Source: an uncultured Chloroflexia bacterium
Lineage (GTDB): Bacteria > Chloroflexota > Limnocylindria > Limnocylindrales > CSP1-4
DNA: 64,000 nucleotides
Direction: 5' to 3'
Assembly (NCBI GenBank): GCA_963755285.1
Contig: CAVWJB010000001.1
Coordinates: 167,333-231,332, forward strand
Shown here: in pieces, positions 4,253-63,314 of the stretch
How positions within the stretch are numbered: the first letter of the stretch is position 1
Layout: each line of letters opens with the position of its first letter
Made by a program: the position numbers and the translations under genes
Notes under the pieces: model-generated
Seen by the model: only the letters and a program-made list of their open reading frames with translations
What the model was told of the DNA's origin: nothing
Database searches by the model: none

Positions 4253-5215
4253 ATGGCAAGCACCGGACCGGTCCGCTGGGGGATCCTCGGCACGGGTGGC
4301 ATCACCCGGAAGCTCCTGGCCGGTGCCCGCCGCTCGACCGAGGTCAGCGTCGTGGCGGTCGGCAGCCGGACCACCGAGCGAGCCGCGGCCTACGCAGCGG
4401 AGCATGGGATCGAGCGGGTTCACGGCTCGTACGACGACCTGCTCGAGGACCCGCTCGTCGAGGCCGTCTACATCTCGCTGCCGAACTCGCTCCACCACCC
4501 ATGGACGATGCGGGCGCTCGCCGCCGGCAAGCACGTCCTGTGCGAGAAGCCGTACTCGCGCCGACCCGAGGAGGTCGTGCTGGCCTTCGACGCCGCGGAC
4601 CGGGCGGGGCTCGTCCTGTCGGAGGCGTTCATGTGGCGCCACCATCCGCAGGCCACCCGGATCGTCGAGCTCCTGCCCGAGCTCGGCGGGCTCCAGACGA
4701 TCTGGGCCACGTTCAACTTCGTGCTCGAAGGCGAGACCGACATCCGCCTGCGGGCCGACCTCGACGGGGGCTCCCTGATGGACGTCGGCTGCTACTGCGT
4801 CAGCGGGGCGCGGCTGCTGGCCGGCGAGGAGCCCGAGCTCGCCTTCGGGCTGAGCACCGTCGGTCCGAGTGGTGTCGATCTTCGGTTCAGCGGGCTGCTC
4901 CGCTTCCCGAGCGGGGTCGTCGCCGCGTTCACCTGCGGCTTCACCGCCGACCATCGTGGCCTCGAGGCGGTCGGACCGGCCGGCTCGGCCCTGCTGACCG
5001 ATGCCTGGCAGTCGATGCCGGCGACCCTCGTCCGCGACCGGGTCGAGACGCCGTTCGAGCCCGCCGACCCCTATCAGCTCGAGATCGAGGACGTCAGCGC
5101 CGCGATCCGTGGCCGGAAGACCGCCCGGCTCGGCCGGGCCGACGCGCTCGGTCAGGCCCGCACGATCGAGGCGCTCTATCGCTCGGCAGCCAGCGGAGCC
5201 CCCGTCCGCCTCTGA
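4253..5215 (+). CDS. Gfo/Idh/MocA family oxidoreductase
   Basis: VRWGILGTGGITRK N-terminal Rossmann motif, LCEKP motif, and GAGGAGAG RBS before the ATG. Confidence 0.9.
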   Translation: MASTGPVRWGILGTGGITRKLLAGARRSTEVSVVAVGSRTTERAAAYAAEHGIERVHGSYDDLLEDPLVEAVYISLPNSLHHPWTMRALAAGKHVLCEKPYSRRPEEVVLAFDAADRAGLVLSEAFMWRHHPQATRIVELLPELGGLQTIWATFNFVLEGETDIRLRADLDGGSLMDVGCYCVSGARLLAGEEPELAFGLSTVGPSGVDLRFSGLLRFPSGVVAAFTCGFTADHRGLEAVGPAGSALLTDAWQSMPATLVRDRVETPFEPADPYQLEIEDVSAAIRGRKTARLGRADALGQARTIEALYRSAASGAPVRL

Positions 5216-5245
5216 CGACGATCCCCGATCAGCCTGGCGGACGCT

Positions 5246-6517
5246 TCAGCTGGCCTCGCTGAGCGCGTCCGGCTGACTCCTCGTGGCCGGGGCCGGGCTG
5301 GCGAACCGGGCGTCGGCTGCCGCCTCCATCCGGCTCCAGGCGCGGACTCGCATCGACAATTCGAAGACGGCCAGGCGGTTCTTGCCCTGGGCCTTGGCCT
5401 CGTACATCGCGGCGTCGGCGTGGGCCAGCAGGTCGTCGGTGACCGCGTCCCGGCCCCCGGCGAGGGCGATGCCGATGCTCGCGCCCATCGTGATCGTCTG
5501 GCCGCCGATGTCGATCGGCCGGCGCAGCTCGACGAGGAGGCGCTCGGCCGAGGCGACCGCCTCGTCGACGCCGCGGACCCGGCTGAGCAGAACCGTGAAC
5601 TCGTCGCCGCCCTGGCGCGCCGCGACGTCGTCGGCTCGAATCGTGTCGGCCAGACGGCGGGCGATCTCGCCCAGGACCCGGTCGCCGGCTCGGTGTCCAT
5701 ACGAGTCGTTGATCACCTTGAAGTCGTCGAGGTCGACGAACAGCACCGCCGCGCTCGTCCGGCTTCGGCGCCGCCGGACGAGCGCGCGTTCCACGTGGTC
5801 GCGGAAGAGGATCCGGTTGGCGAGCCCGGTCAGCGGGTCGTGGAGCGCGTCATGGAGGAGCTGCGCCTCGAGCCGCTTGCGGTCCGTCGTGTCGACGAGG
5901 AGGCCCTGCGACATCGGACGCCCGCTGTTCGCCTCGGGCGGCATCGCGAACGCCTCGTCGCGGACCCAGATCTCGGTTCCGTCGGCGGCCACCATCCGGT
6001 ATTCGGCGCGGAGCGGCCGGCCGGTCGTCCAATGGTCCTTGTAGGCGGCGATCGCCATGCTCCGGTCGTCCGGATGGATGAGGCTCGGCCACAGCTCCGG
6101 GTCGCCGATGAACTCCTCCGGCTTGTAGCCGAGGATCCCCCGGATCTGGGGGCTCATGTAGGCCAGCCGGCCACCATCGGAGACGTCGCCGTCGGCCATG
6201 TCGATGTAGACCGCCGCCGGGACGTGCTCGACAAGGAGCCGATAGCGCGAGCCGGCCTCGGCGAGCTTGAGCTCGGTCCGCTCGAGGGCGACCTGCGTCC
6301 GTCGCGCAGCCGCCACGATCCTCGTCCGGTCGTGGACGAGCCGGAGCAGGCTGAGCGCCACGACGAGGGTGAGCCCGACGATGACCAGGTCGATCGTGTC
6401 GAGCAGGTCGAAGCTCGCCCCACCGGTCCAACGCGCTCCGAGCAGGAACGCGCCGATCGGCAGGACGACGACGGACAATCCGCCGAGCGCGAGCTTCAGG
6501 CGCGTGGACCGGTCCAC
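5246..6517 (-). CDS. membrane-anchored PAS-GGDEF diguanylate cyclase
   Basis: Two N-terminal TM helices, a PAS-like core, a GGDEFTVLL active site with RADD (RxxD I-site) five residues upstream. Confidence 0.9.
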   Translation of the reverse strand: MDRSTRLKLALGGLSVVVLPIGAFLLGARWTGGASFDLLDTIDLVIVGLTLVVALSLLRLVHDRTRIVAAARRTQVALERTELKLAEAGSRYRLLVEHVPAAVYIDMADGDVSDGGRLAYMSPQIRGILGYKPEEFIGDPELWPSLIHPDDRSMAIAAYKDHWTTGRPLRAEYRMVAADGTEIWVRDEAFAMPPEANSGRPMSQGLLVDTTDRKRLEAQLLHDALHDPLTGLANRILFRDHVERALVRRRRSRTSAAVLFVDLDDFKVINDSYGHRAGDRVLGEIARRLADTIRADDVAARQGGDEFTVLLSRVRGVDEAVASAERLLVELRRPIDIGGQTITMGASIGIALAGGRDAVTDDLLAHADAAMYEAKAQGKNRLAVFELSMRVRAWSRMEAAADARFASPAPATRSQPDALSEAS

Positions 6518-58168: not shown

Positions 58169-58861
58169 TCAGGCGTTCGACACGATGAGCGGGCCGCGCG
58201 CCTCGCCCGATGCGACGACCGCCTGGGTCACCGCGGCGAGGGCCGCGATCTCGGTCAGGAGCGCTTCGACCCTCGTCGTGGCGGCGTCGGCAAACGCGTC
58301 GTCGGCGACCGAGGGCAGGTTGACGAGAACGTTGGCGGCGGCTCCCCGGGCCGCGGCTTCGCCGAGGAGCGTCGCGACTGCCAGGTCGCTCGAGGCGTTC
58401 GCATTGCTCCGCCCGGCCAGCAGCTCCGCGGCGGCGACGAGCTCGCGACAGGCCTCCACGCAGGACAGCGGCACTTCTGCGGCGATCCGCGCGGCGGCCC
58501 TCAGCGCGGACGTCCGGACCAGTCGCTCGTCGTCGGTCGCCTTGGGAAGCTTGAGGGCGGCGGCGAAGCCCGCGTAGGCGTCGGCGTCGCGGTCCGCGAG
58601 CGCGAGAAACCGATCGGCGAGCTCTCGCCCGCGCGCGCCCGCGGCCGCGTGAACCGCCTCGTGCTCCGCATACTTCGGCCGTCCGGTCGACAGGGCGGCG
58701 ACCATGGCGACGAGGCCTGCCCCGAGCGCGGCCGCCACCGCTGACGCACTGCCACCGCCCGGAACCGGCTCGGCGGACGCGAGGCGGTCGACGAAGGCGC
58801 CGACGGTGAGGTCGCGGAATCGTTGCGCGTCGGTCTCCACCGCCCGATTGTAGGGTGCCAA
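58169..58861 (-). CDS. formimidoyl-THF cyclodeaminase / cyclohydrolase family protein
   Basis: FVDRLASAEPVPGGGSASAVAAALGAGLVAMVAALS. TTG start at 58861. The stop is 3 nt before folD. Confidence 0.85.
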   Translation of the reverse strand: MAPYNRAVETDAQRFRDLTVGAFVDRLASAEPVPGGGSASAVAAALGAGLVAMVAALSTGRPKYAEHEAVHAAAGARGRELADRFLALADRDADAYAGFAAALKLPKATDDERLVRTSALRAAARIAAEVPLSCVEACRELVAAAELLAGRSNANASSDLAVATLLGEAAARGAAANVLVNLPSVADDAFADAATTRVEALLTEIAALAAVTQAVVASGEARGPLIVSNA

Positions 58862-58993
58862 CCCGATGGGCCGCGGGACGCTCCCGCCGGACGAGCGCGG
58901 TACCGGCGCACCCGTCCGGCGAGGGTCCCCGCCAGGGTCGACGTTGGGAGGATCGACGACCCCGGCTCGGTCGAGGCTTGTTGAGTCGACGAG

Positions 58994-59266
58994 TCAGGCG
59001 GCCAGGCGGTCCTCGTCGTCGAGACCCTCGATCGTCCAGCGCCGGGAACGGTGCTGGAAGGTCAGGGCGACCCGTGCCCGGGGCGTCCAGACCTCGAACA
59101 TCGTCCTCGGCCCGATCGCAACCGGGTAGGCCGAGGCCTCGTGCCTGACGGCGGCCACCGAGGTGACGGCGAGACGCTCACCACCCCAGGTGATCTCGCG
59201 TGGGCGCCCGTCGAACCAGTCGGTCCGGACGCGCACCGTGGTCGGTTCCATTCTGGTCATCGCCAT
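58994..59266 (-). CDS. hypothetical 90-aa protein under a LexA-type promoter
   Basis: MAMTRMEPTTVRVRTDWFDGRPREITWGGERLAVTSVAAVRHEASAYPVAIGPRTMFEVWTPRARVALTFQHRSRRWTIEGLDDEDRLAA. AAGGAG lies 9 nt before ATG 59266. The longer track ORF (TTG 59377) would start inside the promoter. Confidence 0.65.
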   Translation of the reverse strand: MAMTRMEPTTVRVRTDWFDGRPREITWGGERLAVTSVAAVRHEASAYPVAIGPRTMFEVWTPRARVALTFQHRSRRWTIEGLDDEDRLAA

Positions 59267-59321
59267 CCTGTCGGCTCCTTCTTCGGCAGCGACTTCGTCG
59301 TCAACCGGGGCACCTCGGCGA

Positions 59322-59337
59322 CAGAACGTCTGTTCAC
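59322..59337 (-). promoter_or_regulatory. LexA/SOS box 2: GTGAACAGACGTTCTG
   Basis: Perfect GAAC-N4-GTTC core on the minus strand (plus-strand gaac at 59324-59327, gttc at 59332-59335). Confidence 0.7.
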
Positions 59338-59347
59338 TTCTGGCTCG

Positions 59348-59377
59348 ACAGTAGACCGAACACCTGTTCGATGTCAA
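59348..59377 (-). promoter_or_regulatory. promoter TTGACA-N18-TACTGT with LexA/SOS box 1 (TCGAACAGGTGTTCGG, 59371-59356) filling the spacer
   Basis: Read on the minus strand: TTGACA at 59377-59372 and TACTGT at 59353-59348. The box differs from TCGAAC-N4-GTTCGA only at its last base. Confidence 0.7.
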
Positions 59378-59468
59378 GCCCTCGGGCGAAGATTCGCCGG
59401 CACCTGTGACAGGTCGGGTGTCACGCGTCGTTGCGTGCCGAATGGCGCTGCCCGGAAGCGCTCCGGAC

Positions 59469-60758
59469 TCAGCCTGGGTCGTCGTCGGTCGCCGGCTCGG
59501 AGTCGCGCATCCCGGTCCGGCGCTCGAGCGGTTTCATCGGATCTCGCTCGAACGGCGCCGGGAGATCCGCTCCGAGCAGCCGCGCCCTGGTCACCGCCCG
59601 ATCCCCGTAGCGGCGCCGAATTGCGTCGGCCGCCTGGGTGACCCGCCGGCGGCGGTCGCTCGCCCCGGCCACGCTCGGCGTGGCATCCGGACCTTCGGAG
59701 CTCTCGAACAGGCCGAGCTGCTGCGGGTCGCCGAAATGGCTGGCCGTGACGCCGAGAAGACGCACCTTGAGGCCGCGGACCTCGGGCCGGGCAAGCTCGA
59801 GTGCCACCCGCCAGATCGGCTCGGCGAGGTCGGTCGGATCGGCCAGGGTGCGCTGCCGGGTGATCGTCCGAAAGGTCGAGTCGCGGATCTTGACGTGGAT
59901 CGTGCCCGCCTTGAGCCCGGCCGAGCGCAGCCGCGAGGCGACCCCGTCGGACATCGCCAGCAGGGTTCGCTCGATCGCGTCCGGATCGGACGTGTCGACA
60001 TCGAACGTGTGCTCGTGGCCGATCGACTTGGCCGGGTCCGCGTCGCCCACCGGATCGGCGTCGAGCCCTCTGGCCCGGGCGGCCAGCGAGGCCCCGTGCT
60101 TCCCGAACCGCCGGGCGAGCAGGTCCTCGGGGAGCGCGGCCAGGTCGCCGATCGTGACGACCCCGAACTCGCCGAGAGCGGCCGCCGTCTTCGCCCCGAC
60201 ACCCCACAACCTGGAGATCGGCAGCGGCGCCAGGAACTCGGCCTCGTGCCCCGGCTGCACGACGACCAGGCCGTCGGGCTTGCGCAGCTCGGACGCCACC
60301 TTGGCCACGAGCTTGGACGGCGCCACCCCGACCGACGCCGTCAGCCCGACCTCGGCGACGATCGCGGCCTTGATCGACGTCGCAATCGCCGGACCGTCGC
60401 CGAACAGCGCCCGCGACCCGGTCACGTCGAGGAACGCCTCGTCGATCGAGATCGGCTCGACCAGCGGGGTGAACCGGCGCAGGATCGTCATGACCTCGCG
60501 GCTGACCCGCTGGTACTTGCGCCCATCGACGGGCAGGAACACGCCCTCCGGGCAGAGTGCGTAGGCAGTCCGGAGCGGCATCGCCGAGTGGACCCCGTAC
60601 CGACGCGCCTCGTAGGAGGCGGCGCTGACGACGCCCCTCGCCGTGGGTGCACCGCCCCCGACGATCACCGGCTTGCCGCGCAGCTCGGGTCGGTCGCGCT
60701 GCTCGACGGCCGCGAAGAACGCGTCGAGGTCGACGTGGAGGATGGTCGGAGCGGTCAC
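59469..60758 (-). CDS. dinB: DNA polymerase IV (Y-family)
   Basis: ILHVDLDAFFAAVE and SIDEAFLD are catalytic acidic motifs. QLGLF is a beta-clamp motif in the C-terminal tail. Confidence 0.95.
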   Translation of the reverse strand: MTAPTILHVDLDAFFAAVEQRDRPELRGKPVIVGGGAPTARGVVSAASYEARRYGVHSAMPLRTAYALCPEGVFLPVDGRKYQRVSREVMTILRRFTPLVEPISIDEAFLDVTGSRALFGDGPAIATSIKAAIVAEVGLTASVGVAPSKLVAKVASELRKPDGLVVVQPGHEAEFLAPLPISRLWGVGAKTAAALGEFGVVTIGDLAALPEDLLARRFGKHGASLAARARGLDADPVGDADPAKSIGHEHTFDVDTSDPDAIERTLLAMSDGVASRLRSAGLKAGTIHVKIRDSTFRTITRQRTLADPTDLAEPIWRVALELARPEVRGLKVRLLGVTASHFGDPQQLGLFESSEGPDATPSVAGASDRRRRVTQAADAIRRRYGDRAVTRARLLGADLPAPFERDPMKPLERRTGMRDSEPATDDDPG

Positions 60759-61990
60759 GCGACGTAGGAACCCCCGATGAACGAGGCCATGAGCAGTGCC
60801 AGGAGCATGACCGAGGCGACGGCCCAGCCGAACCGGAGCCAGCGCCCCGGGACGAGCGCCAGGATGACGAACACCGGGAAGATCACGAGCAGATAGCGCG
60901 CGGTCGAGGTCAACGGGATCGGCTGGATCCGGGTCCCGATCAGGATGAGCTGGGGGAGCGCGTAGAGCGAGTAGGAGATCGGGACGCGGCGCAACCCGAG
61001 CACCGTCACGAACACGAACAGGACGAGCGTGATGAGGTTGAGTGCCTGAAGCGGGTCATGGTGGTCGACCGCCCATTGCCACGATGCGTCGACGACTTCC
61101 CACGGGAGGTGGAAGCTCTTGCCGCCCCACAGCTCCTGCGTGTCGAGCGGGGTCTGCCCGGCAACCGTCGCAGAGAAGCCAAGGAACGCGACGAACCCGA
61201 TCGCCGGGGCGAGGGCGGCGATGGCCGGCCAGACCAGCGTGCCTGCAGGCAGTCTCGGGCCGGCCCGTCCGAGGCCGTGCTCGCGCCAGTAGACGATCGC
61301 CTCCCAACCGAGCGGGAGGACCAGGAACACGCCCTGGATCCTGGTCAGCGCGGCGAGCAGGCCGGCGATCGCCGCGACCGCCCACAGCCGCCGTCGAGCG
61401 CCGAGGACCGCCCAGACCGCCGCCGCCAGGAACAGCGACTCGGTGAACGGGGCGAAGAAGAAGAACGCCGTCGGGAAGATCGAGATCGCAATGACCGTGG
61501 CCAGACCAACCTCGTCGTCGAAGTCGAGCGCGACAAGGCGCCGGAGCCCGGTCATCGCGGCGACGTAGGCCAGACCCGCGACGACGAGGCCGCCGAGCGC
61601 CATCGCCCCGAACAGCAACCGTCCGACCAGCCCGGTGAGGAGCGGGAACAGCGGCCAGAAGTTGACGCTGTTCTCGGCGCGCTCGTAGCCGAACGTCGCG
61701 ATCTTCGTGTACCAGCAGGCGTCCCAGCGCTGCCAGACCCCGACCAGCGGGAACGCCGGACCCTGGTCGGCCAGCGGCGGGATCGTCTGCCAGCCGTTGC
61801 GGGCGAGCTCGAAGTGACAGGGCCCGGGCAGGGTTCCCTGCCACCAGAGGTAGATCGCGAACAGGCCGAAGATCAATCGGAGCGAAACGAACAGGCCGAG
61901 CGCATCGCGAACCGCCTGTCCGAACCCGTCCCCGAAGATGGCCCGGGCTCCGCCCGCCCCGTCCGGCGCGAGCGGACCGTCCTCGTCCAT
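60755..61990 (-). CDS. polytopic GT-C-like membrane glycosyltransferase (PIG-V / mannosyltransferase-like)
   Basis: Start at ATG 61990 (MDEDGPL). WDACWYTKIATFGYE..NFWPLFPLL..FFFFAPFTESLF. The stop overlaps the dinB ATG as ATGA. Confidence 0.7.
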   Translation of the reverse strand: MDEDGPLAPDGAGGARAIFGDGFGQAVRDALGLFVSLRLIFGLFAIYLWWQGTLPGPCHFELARNGWQTIPPLADQGPAFPLVGVWQRWDACWYTKIATFGYERAENSVNFWPLFPLLTGLVGRLLFGAMALGGLVVAGLAYVAAMTGLRRLVALDFDDEVGLATVIAISIFPTAFFFFAPFTESLFLAAAVWAVLGARRRLWAVAAIAGLLAALTRIQGVFLVLPLGWEAIVYWREHGLGRAGPRLPAGTLVWPAIAALAPAIGFVAFLGFSATVAGQTPLDTQELWGGKSFHLPWEVVDASWQWAVDHHDPLQALNLITLVLFVFVTVLGLRRVPISYSLYALPQLILIGTRIQPIPLTSTARYLLVIFPVFVILALVPGRWLRFGWAVASVMLLALLMASFIGGSYVA

Positions 61991-62015
61991 GGCCCGAGAG
62001 TGTATCGTCGGGCCG

Positions 62016-63314
62016 ATGGCCCACCTCGACGAGACGCTGGCGCGCCGCGGGTCGTCGCCGCTGGCTCGAGTCGTCGACTGGTACGCCGACACCCGCCTCG
62101 CCCTCCTGGTCGATACGGTCCGGGGCCGGCCCGACACGCTCGGGACGCTGGTGGTCGTCGCGGTCACGATCGCGATCTACCTGTTCACAGCCTCACGCGA
62201 CCGTCAGAACCTCGACTACTTCGTCCGCCTCGCCGACGCGTTCCTCCACGGCCGGATCTACCTGACCGAGGCCCCGTCCTGGCTCAACGAGCTGATCCCC
62301 AGGGACGGGGTCTGGTACGTCGCCTACCCGCCGTTCCCGGCCGTCGTCCTCGTCCCGTTCGTGGCGATCTTCGGACCGGACTTCCCGCCCCAGATCGCGA
62401 GCTGTGTCGTGGGCGGGATCGGTGTCGGGCTCGCCTGGCTCGTCTTCGGACGGTTCGAGCTGACCGGCCGGGTCCGGCTCGGGCTGACTGCCGTGTTCGG
62501 GTTCGGGACCGTCCTGTGGTACGTCGCCGAGGTCGGGTCCGTCTGGTACTTCAGCCACGTCGTGGCGGTCATGCTGAGCATGGCGGCGATCCTGCTCGTC
62601 CTCGAGAAGCGCGCGCCGTTCGTCGTCGGGCTGCTGCTCGGGTGCGCGGCAATCTCACGCCTGCCGGTCGGCCTGACCGCACCGTTCTTCCTGGCCCTGA
62701 TCGTCGGGATCGGCTGGCCACCACGGCTCCCGGCGCCGGGCGAGCGATCGGCGGCGATCGGCCGGGGGATCGCGTTCCTCGTCGGGATCGGCATCCCGAC
62801 CGTCGTCTATCTCGCCTACAACTTCGCCCGGTGGGGGACGATCGTCGACCAGAGCTACGTGCTCATTCCGGGCGTCCTCGATGACCCTGTCTATGCGAAG
62901 CACGGGATCCTCGCCCTCGAGTACATCCCGCGCCACTTCTATGCGATCTTCCTGCGCAGCTGGAACTTCGTCGACGACCCGCCGTTCATCCAGCCGTCGT
63001 GGTGGGGGCTGTCGGTGTTCCTGACGACGCCGCTCTACCTGTGGCTGTTCAAGGCGCGCCTGCGCGATCCGCGGGTCGTCTGGGCGGCAATCGCATGCGC
63101 GCTCGCCCTGATCCCGATCGTCACCCACGGCAACGTCGGGTTCACCCAGTTCGGGTACCGCTTCAGCCTCGACGTCCAGCCGCTGCTGTTCGTCATCCTG
63201 GCGACCGTGTTCGCGCGCGGCATGTCACGCTGGGCGTGGGCCGCCTCGGCCGTGTCGATCGCGGTCTGCGCCTATGGGATCTGGGCGATCGGGATCGGCT
63301 TCGTCGAGTTCTAG
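62016..63314 (+). CDS. polytopic GT-C-like membrane glycosyltransferase (ArnT/PMT-like)
   Basis: Start at ATG 62016 (MAHLDETL). About 11 helices, with YFVRLADAFLHGRIYL..WYVAYPPFPAVVLVPF. Confidence 0.7.
   Translation: MAHLDETLARRGSSPLARVVDWYADTRLALLVDTVRGRPDTLGTLVVVAVTIAIYLFTASRDRQNLDYFVRLADAFLHGRIYLTEAPSWLNELIPRDGVWYVAYPPFPAVVLVPFVAIFGPDFPPQIASCVVGGIGVGLAWLVFGRFELTGRVRLGLTAVFGFGTVLWYVAEVGSVWYFSHVVAVMLSMAAILLVLEKRAPFVVGLLLGCAAISRLPVGLTAPFFLALIVGIGWPPRLPAPGERSAAIGRGIAFLVGIGIPTVVYLAYNFARWGTIVDQSYVLIPGVLDDPVYAKHGILALEYIPRHFYAIFLRSWNFVDDPPFIQPSWWGLSVFLTTPLYLWLFKARLRDPRVVWAAIACALALIPIVTHGNVGFTQFGYRFSLDVQPLLFVILATVFARGMSRWAWAASAVSIAVCAYGIWAIGIGFVEF

Follow-up and report, generated by a model that had tools for sequence, protein, structure and literature searches.

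A predicted LexA-controlled small gene downstream of dinB in Limnocylindria probably encodes a divergent, free-standing relative of the ImuB C-terminal domain

The C-terminal domain of ImuB (ImuB-C) is essential in the mycobacterial mutasome that is linked to drug resistance. Here we analysed a 64,000-nt stretch of DNA from an uncultured Chloroflexota bacterium of the class Limnocylindria (contig CAVWJB010000001.1, positions 167,333 to 231,332; this whole stretch is called the window, and all coordinates without a locus name refer to it), in which a gene for a 90-aa protein follows dinB, the gene for DNA polymerase IV (Pol IV), behind a promoter with two predicted LexA boxes. Aravind, Anand & Iyer (2013, PMC3765255) defined ImuB-C as a domain of ~80 residues, all-beta in structure, whose C-terminal tryptophan and basic residues are conserved and which occurs either fused to ImuB or as a free-standing protein. 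Genes for the free-standing form were described as occurring most often together with dinB, in operons that frequently encode LexA as well, and the domain was proposed to sense damage or to recruit polymerases (PMC3765255). Besides DinB, ImuB-C genes are elsewhere linked to Ku/ligase, SplB photolyases, SRAP and DnaE2 (PMC3765255).

An active Y-family polymerase (PolY) together with a free-standing ImuB-C and RecA, bound via a RecA N-terminal (RecA-NT)-like motif, was proposed as a variant of the mutasome (Timinskas & Venclovas 2019, PMC6511836), and Geobacter's lexA-imuB-C-polY operon is induced by damage (PMC6511836). In a survey from 2026, ImuB-C was modelled as a novel-fold beta-barrel that binds DnaE2's PHP domain as well as ImuA, and it was reported to be unlike the SH3-like core of UmuD'/YqjX (PMC12926913). 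Chloroflexota or Chloroflexi are mentioned in none of these three papers (PMC3765255, PMC6511836, PMC12926913). We estimate a probability of roughly two in three that the 90-aa protein is a divergent, free-standing ImuB-C member whose gene is gated by LexA and which joins the neighbouring Pol IV-type polymerase. This kind of gene, a free-standing ImuB-C beside DinB and LexA, and its predicted role are already known; new are the divergent member, the phylum and a split in regulation.

The coding sequence of the small gene lies on the minus strand and extends from the ATG at 59266 to a stop codon ending at 58994. A preliminary description of this DNA, made from the sequence alone, had given the interval 58994-59377. 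Its stop end is right, but the interval represents a mechanically called TTG-start open reading frame (ORF) of 127 aa, the first codon of which is the TTG of the promoter element TTGACA, and the true coding sequence is 58994-59266. We identified 478 close homologues of 86-93 aa without a Pfam domain, all from Chloroflexota or "Candidatus Limnocylindria" metagenome assemblies, and relatives are encoded in 374 species genomes. An exhaustive profile search of 1.84 billion representatives resulted in 159 clusters, many of which were fragments. Within the close clade 24 residues of the small protein are invariant, and W77, R41 and R54 are invariant over the divergent family alignments. Conservation across loci was 64-96% for the small protein vs 70-99% for DinB, the median ratio of nonsynonymous to synonymous substitution rates (dN/dS) of the small gene was ~0.26, which indicates purifying selection, and a Shine-Dalgarno-like sequence precedes the gene in 132 of 138 loci. 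Because of these homologues, the conservation, the purifying selection and the Shine-Dalgarno-like sequence, we consider the ORF a real protein-coding gene; its conservation in relatives was a point on which the preliminary description had made its own reading depend.

The promoter region was read on the minus strand. A -35 hexamer TTGACA (59377-59372) is followed by an 18-nt spacer (59371-59354) and by a -10 hexamer TACTGT of the TAnnnT type (59353-59348). The predicted LexA box 1, TCGAACAGGTGTTCGG (59371-59356; 27.4 bits), is located inside the spacer, and the predicted box 2, GTGAACAGACGTTCTG (59337-59322; 21.5 bits), is located 10 nt past the -10 hexamer in the early transcribed region. 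Both contain a perfect GAAC-N4-GTTC core. The Shine-Dalgarno sequence AAGGAG (59280-59275) lies 8 nt ahead of the ATG at 59266. All of these elements had been named in the preliminary description, including the two exact cores, and all are present; only the distance between AAGGAG and ATG, given there as 9 nt, had to be corrected. The scores are based on a weight matrix that was derived from related sites, and the third-ranked matrix site in the 64 kb, within dinB, reached 10.4 bits. GAAC-N4-GTTC occurs four times in the window compared to 0.56 expected occurrences, a count that none of the shuffles got to, and the remaining two sites fall within coding sequence. A consensus promoter scan reported nothing, because TACTGT shares only 3 of 6 positions with TATAAT; the conserved -10 element in relatives is TAnnnT. 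In silico, this arrangement constitutes a sigma-70-type promoter, TTGACA-18 nt-TAnnnT, with one predicted LexA operator in the spacer and a second one just past the -10 element.

Two exact GAAC-N4-GTTC boxes were found in 128 of the 133 related loci, all from Limnocylindria-type Chloroflexota, for which enough upstream sequence was available. The distance between both boxes ranges from 29 to 38 nt and is most commonly 34 nt. The half-sites of box 1 are invariant, but its inner N4 differs freely (AGGT, ACCT, ATGC and GCCT, among others), so that box 1 carries the signature of a protein-binding palindrome. TTGACA is positioned 2 nt ahead of box 1 in 86 loci, TTGAC(A/G) is shifted by 1-3 nt in most of the others, and TAnnnT follows 1-4 nt past box 1 in nearly all loci. 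This double-operator promoter is kept down to ~35% identity of the small protein. Overall, ~900 kb of related loci contained 216 exact boxes, of which 168 were located before the small gene, 42 before lexA and six elsewhere.

The preliminary description had also depended on the lineage having a lexA and using this motif, and both were found: 42 of the 43 lexA-containing loci have GAAC-N4-GTTC upstream of lexA. The loci L001 and L082 carry genes with LexA_DNA_bind and Peptidase_S24 domains, and the lexA promoter of L082, TTGACAtTAGAACGCCTGTTCTggTATGGT, is equal in its geometry to the small-gene promoter. In the window's clade lexA is located within ~5 kb of the small gene. Judged from the near-identical locus L002 and from L001, it lies outside the window, ~0.4 kb past its right end and beyond DUF1232-rplI. 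Regulation of the small gene by LexA is therefore predicted with strong in silico support, and autoregulation of lexA via the same motif is likewise shown in silico. As the preliminary description had stated, dinB has no SOS box; the region upstream of it contained no LexA-like site in 93 of 96 loci. In the remaining loci L047, L069 and L077, a LexA-like box with one mismatch, GAACATCCGGTC (15-17 bits), occurs 46-64 nt upstream of dinB, so a few lineages may have direct SOS control of the polymerase.

Scans of Pfam, NCBIfam and PHROGs assigned the window's small protein to no family, a profile search of PDB sequences, among which ImuB is absent, found nothing, and tblastn searches of plasmids with a family member gave chance matches only. 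An AlphaFold2 model based on 30 homologues (predicted local distance difference test score, pLDDT, 86) is all-beta with seven strands and no helix. Foldseek comparisons of this model gave nothing significant, neither against PDB (best E-value 0.27) nor against BFVD (best E-value 0.01, uncharacterised phage proteins). The representative library also contains entries in which the small protein seems to be fused with IMS_C, FTCD_C or Peptidase_S8; we rejected them as calls of neighbouring genes that arose by frameshift or read-through. Five chimeric public entries (P0173, P0140, P0219, P0192 and P0261) join the small protein to a subtilase, to FTCD_C or to the C-terminus of DinB; instead of true domain fusions, they appear to be products of frameshifted or read-through gene calling in metagenome assemblies.

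Among the 24,736 models of the Pfam set, DUF6504 (PF20114; cut-off 24.2 bits, profile of 103 positions) was a recurrent weak match and the strongest one to any natural family member. P0150, which is 49% identical to the window protein, matched with 22.3 bits (E-value 1.7 × 10−4; residues 18-80 on profile positions 24-100), below the threshold, and six further members matched in the same register with E-values of 0.011-0.1 or weaker, so that in total about seven of 90 scanned members were concerned. Four observations connect this profile with ImuB. A peptide written to represent the motif of the ImuB C-terminus matched, in 878 plasmids, the 3′ ends of genes annotated as "DNA polymerase Y family protein" beside genes for "error-prone DNA polymerase". 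The C-terminus of a Rhodoplanes ImuB matches DUF6504, C-terminal ImuB fragments in the protein database are annotated with PF20114, and one split imuB gene end carries the NCBI label "DUF6504 family protein". We therefore regard DUF6504 as the C-terminal domain of ImuB, that is, ImuB-C. A literature search found no paper under the name DUF6504, and an Alicyclobacillus plasmid polymerase that was considered as an ImuB-C-type example was rejected because it is of the YolD type. The best Pfam score of a natural member, among 24,736 models, thus falls on the very family that the genomic context predicts, and we consider this the strongest single argument. The protein had previously been called unrecognised, which holds insofar as no Pfam model is matched at threshold, but this kind of gene was described in 2013 (PMC3765255).

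For a profile-profile comparison we used a set of 26 ImuB C-termini, almost all of them alphaproteobacterial and without free-standing sequences of the GSU0042 type. With hhalign, the divergent family alignments A2 and A4 were each matched to ImuB-C in one global alignment over 67-76 columns (p-values of 0.008 and 0.012), and one of 200 column shuffles equalled the observed score. The alignment pairs D19, G20, P22, W27, R54, W77 and G81 of the small protein with D19, G20, P22, W27, R57, W87 and G91 of ImuB-C; W87, the partner of W77, is invariant in the ImuB-C set. An AlphaFold2 model of ImuB-C (pLDDT 83) is all-beta as well, with strands at residues 3-12, 26-29, 32-45, 58-65, 70-76 and 87-94. 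Under the hhalign alignment, the strands of the small protein at 4-15, 22-27, 30-33 plus 36-43, 54-60, 65-71 and 76-83 map one to one onto these. Neither model has a structural neighbour in PDB, which fits the published view of ImuB-C as a novel fold (PMC12926913). When the ImuB-C model was also compared with BFVD by Foldseek, its top matches did not overlap with those of the small-protein model, which is uninformative. Taken together, the sequence and model comparisons make it quite probable that the small protein is homologous to ImuB-C.

Two sets of loci were examined for the genomic context, 80 from genomes and 59 further ones, which belong to more divergent subfamilies, from metagenomes. 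The gene order dinB, small gene, FTCD_C, folD, fhs was found in both sets, which supplies the tabulation of neighbours that the preliminary description had proposed, and in all those loci the small gene is located directly downstream of dinB in the same orientation. In subfamilies that are ~35-40% identical to the window protein, the small gene starts 76-150 nt past dinB, and the two-box promoter overlaps the 3′ end of the dinB coding sequence. In deep-branching loci the three genes lexA, dinB and the small gene lie next to each other in one orientation. There, a gap of 42-70 nt that contains no box separates lexA from dinB, and dinB is probably co-transcribed with lexA. Such a contiguous block is found in L082 (5985-8270) and also in L105, L108, L111, L123, L124 and L127; rplI-DUF1232 is divergent from lexA in deep-branching relatives. 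In the window's clade lexA is displaced and inverted relative to dinB, which instead follows a gene for a membrane protein. With the lexA block inverted in this way, the polymerase of this clade is no longer linked to the lexA promoter.

The dinB gene itself (59469-60758, minus strand) encodes a Pol IV-type Y-family polymerase of 429 aa that matches Pfam IMS, IMS_C and IMS_HHH and the NCBIfam model for DNA polymerase IV. It contains the catalytic motifs DLDAFF and SIDEAFLD and a C-terminal extension, and the beta-clamp-binding motif QLGLF is found at residues 347-351 (59706-59720, minus strand), with QLxLF kept in 119 relatives; database matches and motif coordinates thus agree with the identification made earlier. 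Behind the clamp motif follows a helix-like segment, RRRRVTQAADAIRRRYGDRAVTRARLLG (residues 369-396; 59571-59654, minus strand), which is conserved across relatives with the consensus AaDaiRrRFGeraiTRArLLG and resembles by its pattern a RecA-NT-like motif. BLASTP searches with this segment found nothing. A conserved tail, LPAPFERDPMKP (residues 399-410; 59529-59564, minus strand), which is also conserved in relatives, includes LPAPFERDPM; in analogy to UmuC/UmuD' (PMC6511836), the small subunit may dock at this tail. With clamp motif, middle segment and tail, the window's DinB agrees with the type of partner described for free-standing ImuB-C. The deep-branching subfamily has another conserved DinB tail, RRFDFGEKPE, which is paired with another subtype of the small protein. 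This pairing fits a co-adaptation of both proteins, but shared phylogeny explains it equally well. The GTG start of dinB overlaps the stop codon of an upstream 470-aa ORF as GTGA. The preliminary description had called this dinB translationally coupled to a glycosyltransferase gene; the overlap is real, but the label is unverified and the 470-aa gene matches no Pfam family.

Several results weigh against the assignment to ImuB-C and against a role as polymerase subunit. All family members score below the Pfam gathering threshold, neither the window protein nor the family's consensus sequences match DUF6504 in Pfam at all, and further weak Pfam matches recur too, for example TGT_C2. The profile-profile statistics are unstable: with the full family of 371 sequences the hhalign p-value was 0.18, and 58 of 150 shuffles equalled the score, and with the alignment A1, which represents the window subclade alone, the p-value was 0.58. 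Scores of the family hidden Markov model against ImuB-C sequences, and of the reverse search, were no better than those of shuffled sequences. The best match of the DinB segment in Escherichia coli RecA covers residues 18-29, which is the expected place, but 145 of 1000 shuffles scored equally. Because the synteny extends to unrelated folate genes, adjacency to dinB alone is weak within a single class. Finally, the window's lineage shows no co-regulation of dinB with the small gene, which would be unusual for stoichiometric subunits.

Compared with free-standing ImuB-C, for which GSU0042 of Geobacter sulfurreducens is the prototype, the small protein, which forms a single domain, has the same size of ~80-90 aa, an all-beta structure according to the model, and a conserved C-terminal tryptophan with basic residues. 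Its gene likewise lies beside a catalytically intact Y-family polymerase and lexA with predicted SOS control, and both lack relatives in PDB. In contrast to these proteins, its similarity remains below the Pfam threshold. The gene order also differs; it is lexA-polY-imuB-C here, or polY-imuB-C with lexA displaced, and lexA-imuB-C-polY in Geobacter, where imuB-C is co-transcribed, whereas a separate promoter with two predicted LexA operators precedes the small gene. The polymerase of the window's lineage, unlike that of Geobacter, has no LexA site, and no SRAP gene is found in the neighbourhood.

With the C-terminal domain of ImuB in the ImuA-ImuB-DnaE2 mutasome the small protein shares the number and order of beta-strands and, under hhalign, the positions of DG.P, W, R, W and G, so that a common fold is probable. 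It also shares the association with a Y-family module that bears a clamp motif and, in the case of DinB putatively, a RecA-NT-like segment. In contrast to the ImuB domain it is a separate polypeptide with a catalytically intact polymerase as partner, and no imuA or dnaE2 was seen in the neighbourhoods. The domain of ImuB binds DnaE2's PHP domain as well as ImuA (PMC12926913), whereas the predicted partner of the small protein is DinB. UmuD' of Pol V and YolD/YqjX are small, beta-rich and SOS-induced accessory proteins, as is predicted for the small protein, and their genes, like the small gene, lie beside a Y-family polymerase with a RecA-NT-like motif, a putative one in DinB, and a subsequent conserved C-terminal tail; by analogy the functional logic, the licensing of translesion synthesis, may be the same. 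A relationship in sequence or fold to UmuD'/YolD was not found (Pfam Peptidase_S24 and YolD remained unmatched), and the small protein has no autoproteolytic activation.

Based on these comparisons we propose the following mechanism. In undamaged cells two LexA dimers would keep the small gene off by blocking the binding of RNA polymerase and early elongation. Upon DNA damage, the RecA-stimulated self-cleavage of LexA would free the promoter, and the presence of two operators suggests tight repression and a late release. The induced small protein would then join the adjacent Pol IV-type polymerase, likely via the C-terminal tail of DinB, and both, probably together with RecA, may build a complex for translesion synthesis or bring the polymerase to lesions. 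A partnership with Pol IV, as already suggested in the preliminary description, is plausible given the invariant adjacency to dinB and the probable relationship to ImuB-C (PMC3765255, PMC6511836), although it is only inferred. Because dinB in the window's lineage has no LexA site and is coupled to the gene for a membrane protein, the small subunit would be the only damage-gated component of such a complex. A more far-reaching version, in which DinB is made constitutively from a housekeeping operon, the LexA-gated ImuB-C-like subunit acts as the on-switch to a translesion or mutagenic complex and a palindrome upstream of the promoter provides a second input, is tentative, and we regard it as rather doubtful. 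If it were true, SOS control would rest on the accessory subunit alone, a design that has not been described for Pol V, ImuABC or the Geobacter operon.

The first alternative sees in the small protein an SOS effector that is specific to the lineage and has no relation to ImuB-C, for example a cytoplasmic checkpoint protein or division inhibitor analogous to SulA, or a modulator of RecA or LexA, and that lies beside dinB merely as part of a conserved lexA-centred SOS islet. The repression by two predicted operators, the small size, the restriction to one class and a distance of ~1.3 kb from lexA in the deep-branching subfamily all suit such an effector, as do the sub-threshold and unstable sequence evidence for ImuB-C. 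In Gram-positive bacteria the SOS division inhibitors show little conservation and are typically co-localised with lexA, but all those described possess a single transmembrane segment (PMC6851548). The small protein resembles YneA, SosA, ChiZ and DivS in being small, poorly conserved and encoded by a predicted LexA-repressed gene in the lexA neighbourhood. It differs from them in that it has no membrane segment (over 19-residue windows the Kyte-Doolittle index of the window protein peaked at 0.83, and family values did not exceed 1.08), has no LysM domain in Pfam scans of the family, and is always encoded after dinB instead of diverging from lexA. SulA, DinI, YebG, RecX, UmuD and YolD found no Pfam or NCBIfam match in the window protein and ~90 relatives. 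The strongest weak Pfam match of a natural member, which falls on the very family expected from the polymerase context, and the agreement of strand order and conserved residues with ImuB-C also speak against an unrelated effector, and we consider this alternative unlikely.

About equally improbable, and if anything slightly more so, is that the small protein belongs to the ImuB-C type but acts as a damage sensor or recruiter for repair in general, as proposed by Aravind and colleagues, and not as a dedicated subunit of Pol IV. The links of ImuB-C to Ku/ligase, SplB, SRAP and DnaE2 in other organisms (PMC3765255) point in this direction, as does the separate regulation of dinB and the small gene in the window's lineage, and the composition of the window protein, with 14 arginines, no lysine and an isoelectric point of 10.35, fits nucleic-acid binding. 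Against such a general role, the small gene always follows dinB directly and in the same orientation within the clade, the type of DinB tail changes along with the subtype of the small protein, and no Ku, ligase, SplB or SRAP genes were found in the neighbourhoods listed. The last alternative, that the double LexA promoter mainly serves FTCD_C, folD and fhs to supply nucleotides for repair and that the small ORF is only a leader cistron, draws on the shared order and orientation of these genes in nearly all loci and on a terminator scan that found no canonical terminator, but it is very improbable, because the small ORF is as conserved as dinB and under purifying selection and therefore not a mere leader, and because the gap to FTCD_C varies from 84 to 2618 nt with insertions (in L082 it holds a formyltransferase gene on the opposite strand) and contains a conserved long hairpin in the window's clade.

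The RNA hairpin that separates the small gene from FTCD_C-folD-fhs is located at 58887-58919 on the minus strand, with an extended stem at ~58872-58934. Its core stem of 13 bp, lengthened to ~20 bp in the window, carries the invariant loop CCGGUAC. Of 134 loci, 81 contain the hairpin, and in the window it occurs only once. Compensatory and G·U changes in the stem fit the sense strand only. The hairpin is not followed by a U-tract, and an Rfam scan of 58700-59600 returned no known RNA family. The hairpin may terminate or stabilise the transcript of the small gene, or it may serve the folate operon as a leader element.

The palindrome upstream of the promoter, GTGACACCCGACCTGTCAC (GTGNCA-N7-TGNCAC; 59406-59424, minus strand), is located ~30 nt upstream of the -35 element and is likewise unique in the window. 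With the form GTGNCA-N6-8-TGNCAC it is kept in 77 of 118 loci, ending 27-46 nt upstream of the -35 element, and it is absent in the subfamilies whose promoter overlaps dinB. It could be the operator of a second regulator; a second promoter was sought in it, and no convincing -35/-10 pair was found. Downstream of box 2, the stretch GTGCCCCGG of the 5′ untranslated region (59295-59310) is near-invariant in the window's clade. In L001, an insertion of ~860 bp (5140-5800) separates dinB from the small-gene promoter and contains a helix-turn-helix-like ORF on the reverse strand, which is flanked by copies of GTGATGCGAGTCGATGCATCA and a tandem repeat (GGTGAAGC)n; the LexA promoter downstream is intact. 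This looks like a small mobile or regulatory insertion. Upstream of dinB, the 470-aa ORF (60755-62167, minus strand) encodes a multi-pass membrane-like protein, and its 5′ end overlaps by ~230 nt with a divergent ORF for a membrane-like protein of 458 aa (61938-63314, plus strand). Because of this overlap at least one of the two start codons is probably mis-assigned. Both ORFs occur in the window's subclade only.

No new kind of system is revealed by these results. Rather, a relationship of the small protein to ImuB-C would extend the module of LexA, a Y-family polymerase and ImuB-C to the Limnocylindria, an abundant and uncultured class of soil and freshwater Chloroflexota, and would add ~500 divergent sequences that are missed by current Pfam models. 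It would also provide a natural case in which the small subunit, and not the polymerase, bears the SOS control. A free-standing ImuB-C with an active polymerase as its partner could be an easier system in which to probe the role of this domain.

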